Shown in pieces: positions 1 to 4,210 of a stretch of DNA of 4,210 nucleotides. The stretch is from a virus (lineage: Duplodnaviria; Heunggongvirae; Uroviricota; Caudoviricetes). The notes beneath the pieces were generated by a model that was given only the letters and a program-made list of their open reading frames with translations, had not been told where the DNA came from and did no database searches. Position 1 is the stretch's first letter. Every line of letters starts with the position of its first letter. A program made the position numbers and the translations under genes. The DNA lies in IMG/VR virus record IMGVR_UViG_2534681674_000013, positions 1 to 4,210 of that record; one strand, 5' to 3'.

Positions 1-336
1 CGAAGTTATTACGTTCACGCGCACAGACGGCCCCGCCATTACGCTGAACCAGCGGTTACGCACGGAATCTTCATGCCAGCGGGTATCGCTGTAACGGGTA
101 ATCTGGCGATTCCTGTCTCCTGCATAGCTGAATGACGTCACCATCCCCAGTGTGTCCGTAAACTCATAACGGTATTTCACGTTAATCCCGTTCAGATCAT
201 CGCTGCCGGGAACGTTCGTCGAGGCATGAAGATACCCCGCGCTCAGCGTGGACTGATGTTCAGACGCCCATGCAGGCGCACCGGATACGGCCAGACAAAT
301 GGCTGCGGACAAAATGGCGGCATAAAGTTTACGCAT
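1..336 (-). CDS. lom: Lom/Ail/PagC/OmpX-family outer-membrane protein, N-terminal 112 codons (gene continues beyond window position 1)
   Basis: Minus-strand ATG at 336-334, preceded by GAGAGG Shine-Dalgarno (complement of 342-347) with 5-nt spacing. My translation reads [108 protein letters not shown]... This has a typical signal peptide with an AWA signal-peptidase-I site and alternating beta-strand residues, and closely resembles lambda Lom as I remember it. It sits immediately downstream of J, as in lambda. Not in the supplied ORF track because it runs off the window edge. Confidence 0.8.
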
Positions 337-356
337 AATTACCTCTCGCTTTTCTG

Positions 357-384
357 CAATAAAAAAGGCGTCATTTCTGACGCC
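357..384 (-). terminator. Intrinsic (rho-independent) terminator between J and lom
   Basis: Perfect 7-bp stem GGCGTCA (367-373) / TGACGCC (378-384) with a 4-nt loop. On the minus strand it is followed directly by UUUUUUAUUG (complement of 357-366). It begins 19 nt after the J stop codon (403-405). Confidence 0.6.
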
Positions 385-402
385 CGTTATGGGTTATAAA
401 AT

Positions 403-3858
<3,456 letters not shown>

Positions 3859-3882
3859 TCATGACTGAATAAAAATTCTGAA

Positions 3883-3900
3883 TATCTTCACATTTTCTGT
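3883..3900. repeat. Imperfect direct repeat, copy A (TATCTTCACATTTTCTGT)
   Basis: CATTTTCTGT at 3891-3900 is identical to 3981-3990. The flanking ATCTTCA (copy A) and ATCTT (copy B) extend the match with a 2-nt indel. The copies are 90 nt apart. Confidence 0.6.
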
Positions 3901-3974
3901 ACGCCCCCGTGGCAGATATCATTCCCGGGCGTTACAGTTTTTTCGGGCCAATAAAAACAAAACTCCCTGTGGTT

Positions 3975-3990
3975 AATCTTCATTTTCTGT
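3975..3990. repeat. Imperfect direct repeat, copy B (AATCTTCATTTTCTGT)
   Basis: See copy A. Copy B lies immediately 5' (plus strand) of the 3992-4015 hairpin. Confidence 0.6.
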
Positions 3991-3991
3991 T

Positions 3992-4022
3992 CCCGCAGCC
4001 TTCGGTCACTGCGGGATTTTTT
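3992..4022 (+). terminator. Plus-strand intrinsic-terminator-like hairpin plus T-tract (orphan; antisense to the late operon)
   Basis: 7-bp stem CCCGCAG (3992-3998) / CTGCGGG (4009-4015) with a 10-nt loop. On the plus strand it is followed directly by ATTTTTTCGCTTTTA (4016-4030). On the minus strand the same hairpin is followed by AACAGAAAAUG, so it is not a good terminator for I. No plus-strand gene is evident upstream of it. Confidence 0.45.
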
Positions 4023-4027
4023 CGCTT

Positions 4028-4210
4028 TTATGCCTGCCGCCCGATAACCACCACCTTCCCGTCACCGCCTTCATCACGGGTACTGATGTCCTGGGAGATT
4101 CGCCGTGAGCCAACCAGCATTTCACCGTAAGGCACCGGCATCGGGTTCCCCTGTGCAATCATGTTATCCAGCGAGGAAAAGTACGTGTTCTGTCTGCCGT
4201 TATCCGTGCT
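4028..4210 (-). CDS. I: Tail assembly protein I (lambda gpI-like), C-terminal 60 codons plus stop (gene continues beyond window end)
   Basis: My translation of the minus strand from 4210 reads STDNGRQNTYFSSLDNMIAQGNPMPVPYGEMLVGSRRISQDISTRDEGGDGKVVVIGRQA*, with TAA stop at 4030-4028. This matches the C-terminal region of lambda gpI as I recall it (..DNGKQNTYFSSLDNM.AQGN...YGEM.VGSR...VVVIGR..), and the position directly upstream of J agrees with lambda gene order. Not in the supplied ORF track because it is truncated by the window edge. Confidence 0.75.
   Translation of the reverse strand, partial: STDNGRQNTYFSSLDNMIAQGNPMPVPYGEMLVGSRRISQDISTRDEGGDGKVVVIGRQA

Follow-up and report, generated by a model that had tools for sequence, protein, structure and literature searches.

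How is a late phage gene transcribed when an intrinsic terminator stands directly before its start codon? The question is raised by lom, a gene of the Ail/Lom outer-membrane protein family, in a 4,210-nt stretch of DNA from a tailed phage (IMG/VR record IMGVR_UViG_2534681674_000013, positions 1 to 4,210), which we call the window throughout. The minus strand of the window carries, in this order, the 3' end of tail gene I, a 235-nt insert, the tail-tip gene J, a 66-nt spacer (402..337) and the start of lom. A first-pass annotation, made from the letters alone, had reasoned that a lom gene placed behind such a terminator needs either a promoter of its own or terminator read-through. Where a lysogenic lom promoter might lie is a small, old gap in lambda biology. 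Barrels such as Ail, Rck and PagC are tied to adhesion and serum resistance. If Lom is produced in lysogens it would count as virulence cargo; if it appears at lysis alone, as baggage of the late operon. The reading we favour, with a probability of roughly 60%, is that lom is transcribed mainly as part of the late transcript antiterminated by Q, and that the J-lom hairpin belongs to a series of terminators inside this operon.

The terminator between J and lom

The hairpin has the sequence GGGCGTCA-GAAA-TGACGCCT (385..366) and runs into the U-tract TTTTTTATT. Its stem consists of 8 pairs, 7 of them Watson-Crick and one G·U, with 5 G-C pairs among them; the folding energy is -13.0 kcal/mol, and the hairpin lies within the minimum-free-energy fold. 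The features by which intrinsic terminators are recognised are all present, namely a GC-rich stem of at least 5 pairs, a loop of 3-8 nt and a U-tract directly after the stem. A score of the d'Aubenton-Carafa type (d-score) is clearly positive at about +24, a value that is approximate with present-day energy parameters. A terminator scan of the window ranked the hairpin second of 8 terminator-like sites, where 3.6 ± 2.1 were expected. From the end of the U-tract to the lom ATG there are 21 nt, in good agreement with the spacing of about 20 nt given earlier.

We compared the junction across 80 viral-contig loci (with Lom proteins 97-100% identical), 33 genome loci and lambda, which together yield 18 distinct J-lom spacers. 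The stem is found in four paired forms (GGCGTCA/TGACGCC, GGCACCA/TGGTGCC, GGCGCCA/TGGCGCC and GGCACCT/AGGTGCC), and the loop reads GAAA, GGAA, TTTC or CAGG. In an alignment of 14 distinct junction sequences, stem pairing is kept in 93.8% of the cells, with compensatory changes in three of the eight pairs (G-C/A-U, C-G/U-A and A-U/U-A). The unpaired cells fall almost entirely in the row of lambda, whose hairpin is offset by three columns. In 500 column shuffles the observed pairing or covariation score was never matched, and shifting the 3' partner lowers the pairing to 37-61%. Because the stem changes in a compensatory manner and no shuffle did as well, the hairpin is not a product of chance. 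The U-tract is invariant among window-type junctions. Across 54 distinct junctions of this type, nucleotide diversity is 0.23 in the last 51 nt of J, 0.12-0.14 in the two stem arms, 0.08-0.10 in the first 120 nt of lom and 0.009 in the 29 nt from the U-tract to the ATG. Judged by this comparison, the hairpin and its U-tract are a real intrinsic (rho-independent) terminator that is under selection.

In two of the related loci the sequence upstream of lom (at ~1900-2000 in both) has been replaced. The break falls in the middle of the 5' arm of the hairpin in one of them (L005) and at GAAAAGCGAGAGG in the other (L011), which thereby lacks the terminator. There are thus also lom genes with neither J nor the terminator in front of them.

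In lambda, the genes J-lom-stf-tfa (lom at 18965..19585, NC_001416) have the same order and strand as here. The lambda lom gene begins about 60 nt after J, with a hairpin and U-tract in between, and a second terminator separates it from stf. The lambda J-lom hairpin (CGTCCG-GGAA-CGGGCG-TTTTATT, 6 pairs) differs from that of the window in sequence and register, and lambda contains neither the motif TTATAACCC found in the spacer of the window nor the 235-nt insert between I and J.

Terminators within the late operon

A J protein identical to that of the window is encoded in four further assemblies, one of which, the 9.2-kb contig L117, is 100% identical to window positions 14..4210 and extends further. 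Behind lom, L117 has a second and stronger terminator (AGCCCGCC-GTTTCA-GGCGGGCT-TTTTTG, -17.6 kcal/mol), present also in lambda and in the JNU prophage, which ends 17 nt before the ATG of the fibre gene. Another terminator stands before J. The tract TGTTTTTGTG that follows its stem ends about 31 nt before the J ATG, its folding energy is -18.8 kcal/mol, and in 6 homologues it is 100% paired, with one compensatory C-G/U-A pair. The three best terminator-like sites on the late strand of L117 are exactly those in the gaps between the insert and J, between J and lom and between lom and the fibre gene, each of them a short way ahead of the ribosome-binding site of the gene that follows; the two terminators flanking lom in lambda are likewise the top-scoring sites there.

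Side-tail-fibre genes lie behind lom, in the same orientation, in L117, in lambda and in the JNU prophage (99% identical), and the J-lom hairpin is therefore not an operon end. The earlier name "J terminator" can be kept as far as the terminator itself is concerned and has to be dropped in its operon-end sense, the fibre genes downstream belonging to the same late operon. The authors of the HK97, N15 and phi80 genomes annotate terminators ahead of J, L and tail-fibre genes, at a distance of 11-20 nt. Late transcription of Stx phages from pR' is under antitermination control (PMC7547250), as is established for lambdoid phages with Q. A terminator that abuts a start codon is normal in antiterminated late operons and does not by itself imply a separate promoter. 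Nor is this position special to lom, because the essential gene J also has a terminator directly upstream in the window. RNA polymerase modified by Q reads through terminators. The argument that lom needs a special promoter or read-through is weakened, since read-through is the default in a Q-antiterminated operon and the same layout is found before J and before the fibre gene. The terminator before lom, taken alone, gives no evidence for special regulation.

The following course of events would be in keeping with transcription of lom from the late promoter. Upon induction, polymerase modified by Q at pR' would ignore the late terminators; J, lom and the fibre genes would be made from a single late transcript, and the strong Shine-Dalgarno sequence GAGAGGT would drive translation of Lom. 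In the repressed prophage, where Q is missing, the terminators would stop stray or read-in transcription, so that the tail genes stay silent, and they would bracket lom as an insulated cassette. Expression in the lysogen would be low, and lysogenic Lom, if any, would come from a weak or factor-dependent promoter that is not recognisable by sequence.

Could the hairpin act mainly on the RNA, by protecting a 3' end or marking a processing boundary and so keeping the J part of the long late mRNA stable, or by setting the J:Lom ratio, with termination being incidental? A Q-modified polymerase is expected not to terminate, which leaves an RNA-level role as the only one available in lytic growth. 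Moreover, it is the structure and not the sequence that is conserved, and similar hairpins close other cistrons of the operon. The invariant U-tract points the other way, as it is needed for termination and not for exonuclease protection, and equivalent elements are annotated as terminators in HK97, N15 and phi80. We therefore consider it quite improbable that this is the main function of the hairpin; such a role would in any case be compatible with late transcription of lom and not exclusive of it.

Promoter search, leader and lysogenic expression

A consensus scan (9/12) from I through the fibre gene found no promoter-like site on the late strand. In addition, a -35/-10 position weight matrix (PWM) was run over the 600 nt upstream of lom in the window, in lambda and in three other junction classes. 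The maxima in these junctions reach 6-9 bits, and none of them is conserved in position. On the whole late strand of the window (4,183 positions), 10 sites score at least 6 and none at least 8, the top score being 7.7 bits; because these window-wide scores are comparable, the maxima upstream of lom are at background level. The sole -10-like element in the spacer is TATAAC (398..393), which has a C at the critical position -7 and lacks a -35. The first-pass annotation, which had pointed to this element as the only one in the spacer and had seen no convincing -35, is thereby borne out. TATAAC does not rank with the best PWM hits and was not reported by the consensus scan. The hairpin leaves too little space for a promoter on its downstream side, where the -10 candidates are TTTATT and TATTGC in the window and, in lambda, TATTAT without a -35. 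A search for a PhoP box, in analogy to pagC, gave none at up to 2 mismatches, and a literature search found no mapped lom promoter or terminator. As far as can be read from the sequence, there is no credible sigma-70 promoter for lom in the spacer or in the 3' end of J; weak or factor-dependent ones are possible.

A promoter of the latter kind would make lom an independently transcribed moron. It might be weak, or depend on an activator or another sigma factor, and it might lie in the final few hundred nt of J or in the spacer, for example at TATAAC, with the hairpin serving as an attenuator or 5' stabiliser. Transcripts that leak through the terminator, or start within it, would then supply low constitutive Lom in lysogens. 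In favour of this, TTATAACCC with its TATAAC is kept in window-type spacers, including those that follow two different J C-termini, and one junction class reads TGTTATAAC, which resembles an extended -10. The poor match of TATAAC itself and its absence from lambda count against such a promoter, as does the lack of any candidate in the 600 nt upstream that rises above background or is conserved in position. Furthermore, transcription starting about 7 nt downstream of TATAAC would begin 1-3 nt before the stem and place the whole terminator in the transcript, and this terminator looks strong (8 pairs followed by U6AUU).

The hairpin and U-tail would also suit a short regulatory RNA of about 45-50 nt, reaching from the J stop to the terminator and either encoded as such or processed. 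Positions 411..381 resemble the 5' end of CyaR (GCTGAA-N4-ATAACCCATAA); in this alignment the J stop and spacer ATCAGTATCAGCTGAATTTTATAACCCATAA (381-411, minus strand) are set against the start region of E. coli cyaR, …GCTGAAAAACATAACCCATAA (L132 175-205), and 3 of 2000 shuffles reach the score, a p-value that is uncorrected for the choice of the comparator. The CyaR-like stretch overlaps the coding sequence of J and is not found in lambda. There is no promoter for such an RNA, and an Rfam scan of the whole window at E ≤ 1 returned only a chance match to a small nucleolar RNA (snoRNA). The resemblance is probably due to chance, and we hold a short RNA from this junction to be extremely unlikely.

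Three sets of observations weigh against transcription of lom mainly from the late promoter. The first comes from lambdoid phages that have no lom. In HK97, HK022, N15 and phi80 there is no terminator after J: the next gene begins at or within a few nucleotides of the J stop in HK022, N15 and phi80, and in HK97 J is followed by a gap of 207 nt that has IS5-like inverted ends and for which no terminator is annotated. It follows that the hairpin goes along with lom. A terminator-lom-terminator cassette of this kind also fits a lom-specific regulatory role, and the co-occurrence of hairpin and gene is a point in favour of an independent moron.

The second is the lom leader. The 29 nt that reach from the U-tract to the ATG, TTTTTATTGCAGAAAAGCGAGAGGTAATT (337-365, minus strand), are near-invariant, and their flanks vary about 10 times more. 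The U-tract and the Shine-Dalgarno sequence account for only about two thirds of the constancy of these 29 nt, and that of the A-rich GCAGAAAAGC is explained neither by termination nor by the Shine-Dalgarno sequence. The near-invariant leader, which an independent moron could also claim for itself, is the one feature that transcription from the late promoter does not fully account for. Terminator and leader together may form a dedicated control gate for lom, and we can picture it in two versions. In one, a promoter may overlap the terminator, or transcription may start at the base of the hairpin and turn it into a 5' stabiliser. In the other, by analogy to ompX and other porin mRNAs, Hfq and small RNAs (sRNAs) may act on the A-rich GCAGAAAAGC-Shine-Dalgarno stretch (GCAGAAAAGCGAGAGG). 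We regard a gate of either kind as rather doubtful. If it existed, Lom would be a conditionally expressed lysogenic-conversion protein and not a passive passenger of the late transcript.

The third comes from part of the record of lom expression in lysogens. According to reviews and Chen et al., lambda lom is transcribed in lysogens, which would require a Q-independent promoter somewhere. In phi24B, where the gene context is different, lom expression is alike in lysogenic and induced cultures and hence independent of induction. Both reports favour an independent moron. On the other side, Osterhout et al. did not detect lom in a lambda lysogen, and in EDL933 arrays the signal of the Lom gene Z2146 is low (log2 5.8-7.0) and tracks that of Z2144, a nearby tail-component gene of the same prophage (5.9-7.6); the Bor gene lies far above it at log2 13-14.7. 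The published data on lysogenic lom expression are thus mixed, and an independently transcribed lom is in our view a possibility to be taken seriously, albeit an unlikely one. The lomR gene of the Rac prophage in E. coli K-12 was tried as a proxy and rejected: J is missing there by deletion, and lomR, interrupted by IS5, overlaps ynaA. With the junction gone, the near-zero expression of lomR is uninformative.

How far does lom resemble a moron in the sense of Juhala et al. 2000? It is an extra gene between late genes, absent after J in HK97, HK022, N15 and phi80, and it has its own downstream terminator. Its base composition does not set it apart, since lom has 56.0% GC compared to 57.0% in J and 59.2% in the fibre gene; the corresponding values are 37-42% for the nleG genes found further downstream in L117 and 44% for the I-J insert. 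As to a promoter of its own, neither the spacer nor the 600 nt upstream holds a sigma-70-like site that is conserved or above background. The gene is only partly moron-like. Extra genes between conserved late genes are also found in HK97/HK022, N15 and phi80, as in the window. Lambda bor, a prophage envelope-protein gene in late-gene territory, is named along with lom as cargo for lysogenic conversion; its product is a lipoprotein, whereas Lom is a barrel.

The gap between J and stf in HK97 (L123 7040-7170) holds a pair of terminal inverted repeats of the IS5 type, GGAAGGTGCGAATAAG … CTTATTCGCACCTTCC, separated by about 100 nt, and has the look of a miniature IS5 remnant in the position that lom occupies in lambda.

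The lom gene, its locus and the insert between I and J

The lom ATG is at 336..334, and the fragment in the window comprises the first 112 codons (336..1). Its 112-aa translation matches the Pfam family Ail_Lom (PF06316) with an E-value of 5.9e-63 and 212.7 bits (cut-off 23) over profile positions 1-109 of 199; the full-length protein of the JNU prophage, which is 99% identical, reaches 403.4 bits. Together with the comparison to lambda, this bears out the view that a lom-like gene of the Ail/Lom family directly follows J. At the N-terminus, a Sec signal peptide that ends in an AxA cleavage site (...SGAPAWA|SEHQ) was read from the translation by eye. The barrel is complete in L117, where the intact lom open reading frame (ORF) of 199 aa ends in GVGYKF with an aromatic last residue. 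The concern that lom might prove to be disrupted beyond the window is thereby removed. Full-length Lom aligns end-to-end with lambda Lom and with OmpX and Ail chains, and its sequence matches in the PDB are headed by lambda Lom (9wso, 6.4e-49), followed by OmpX and Ail (1e-17 to 1e-18). We conclude from these sequence features that the predicted product is a Sec-exported, 8-stranded outer-membrane beta-barrel of the Ail/Lom/OmpX type.

Yersinia Ail, OmpX, Rck and PagC share a Pfam family and fold class with Lom. The scores against the equivalog models for Rck (NF011777, 113.5 with a cut-off of 258) and OmpX (NF006917, 98.1 with a cut-off of 176) are below their cut-offs, and the adhesion or serum-resistance function of Ail and Rck is not transferable to the Lom studied here. 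Outer-membrane location and adhesion or serum-resistance activity are described in the literature for lambda Lom, Ail and Rck only.

The present allele is 47% identical to lambda Lom. The last ~75 nt of lom, the terminator that follows and the start of the fibre gene are near-identical between lambda and the window-type cassette (L117 5026-5089, L002 5087-5150 and L001 6865-6928). Because the 3' end of lom is near-identical to lambda while the rest of Lom is 47% identical, there is a sharp mosaic boundary near the 3' end of the gene, presumably a recombination joint. Lambda-type lom was also seen on contigs of about 1x coverage in assemblies of unrelated organisms, among them Neobacillus, Kitasatospora, Bradyrhizobium, Shewanella and Pseudomonas (L093-L104 and other short loci). 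These matches are equal in identity, score and extent, and they look like contamination with phage-lambda DNA.

By an exact look-up of the J protein, the window was found to be an entire draft contig, AEZJ02000035.1 (GCA_000194215.2), that breaks inside a multi-copy gene. BLAST matches in 5,426 complete E. coli genomes all end at window position 14, and nucleotides 1-13 match no lom in these genomes, the fetched loci, the viral contigs or the metagenome contigs, the last three sets having been queried with 25-27-mers across the junction. They are most likely contig-end noise, an assembly artefact at the boundary of a multi-copy repeat. The truncation of lom is a contig end and not a gene disruption, because the identical contig L117 carries an intact lom.

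Gene J is identified by six GpJ-specific Pfam domains (1e-33 to 3e-41) and is annotated as gpJ in E. coli genomes. The gene upstream of the insert matches PF06805 (Lambda_tail_I) in L117 and is called a tail assembly protein in the annotation of matching genomes. Downstream of lom, L117 holds a 425-aa tail-fibre gene, a Phage_fiber_C gene and three nleG effector genes. The latter, encoding type III effectors, lie in tandem after the tail-fibre genes (L117 6751-8751). The locus forms the distal part of the late operon in a lambdoid prophage from E. coli of the Shiga-toxigenic type, and the positions of its features in the window are given in Table 1.

Table 1. Features of the 4,210-nt window, with positions counted from its first letter
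Feature	Position	Strand	Details
Tail assembly gene I, 3' end	4210..4028	-	stop TAA 4030..4028
Low-GC (44%) insert between I and J, moron slot	3793..4027	-	lambda and the JNU prophage have ~60 nt
Hairpin CCCGCAG-N10-CTGCGGG, then A, TTTTTT	3992..4022	+	terminator-like, antisense to the late operon
Terminator before J	3857..3824	-	ACAGGCATCC-TCCG-GGATGCCTGT-TGTTTTTG; ranked first in the terminator scan of the window
Gene J, tail-tip / host-specificity protein, 1129 aa	403..3792	-	ATG at 3792, TGA 405..403
Spacer from J stop to hairpin	386..402	-	contains TTATAACCC, with TATAAC inside at 398..393
Intrinsic terminator between J and lom	358..385	-	stem 385..378 / 373..366, GAAA loop 377..374, U-tract 366..358
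lom leader	337..357	-	GCAGAAAAGC, Shine-Dalgarno GAGAGGT 347..341, then AATT
lom, 5' portion	14..336	-	323 nt, ~108 codons; Ail/Lom family, Sec signal peptide
Contig-end sequence	1..13	-	CGTAATAACTTCG (lom strand); differs from every known lom

A 600-nt query spanning the 3' end of J, the junction and the 5' end of lom has matches in 4,648 of the 5,426 E. coli genomes, 1,529 of which cover at least 80% of it. A single genome may hold up to 14 matches, and genomes of Shiga-toxigenic E. coli carry many copies. The NCBI annotation pipeline PGAP names the gene "Ail/Lom family outer membrane beta-barrel protein" and places it beside gpJ. The arrangement is the ordinary lambda layout of J, lom and stf, which is common and already known. 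What our analysis adds is small: the J-lom terminator is conserved as a structure, and it is paired with a second one behind lom.

We found the I-J insert in 766 of the 5,426 genomes and in many Stx1 and Stx2 phages, always unannotated, and it has no match in Rfam. It contains two conserved hairpins, that of the late-strand terminator before J and one on the opposite strand, with a conserved 45-nt block between them. The stem of the plus-strand hairpin is invariant and its loop variable in 6 homologues, and on the late strand it is preceded by A7. No ORF is conserved in the insert (the ATG is changed to ACG in 2 of 6 homologues). HK97 and HK022 use the same gap as a moron slot for forward and reverse units, whereas the slot of the window holds the 235-nt insert, and their I-J morons have no sequence in common with it. 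The idea that the insert is a degraded HK97/HK022 moron (the slot of HK97 gp22/gp23) was rejected for want of sequence similarity. The insert has the appearance of a small transcription unit without coding function, and we regard it as a candidate for a small-RNA or moron unit. In Stx2 phage 1717 (L131 ~405-460), the heptamer CAGACAT is repeated in tandem between the terminator of the insert and the start of J; the other homologues have fewer copies.

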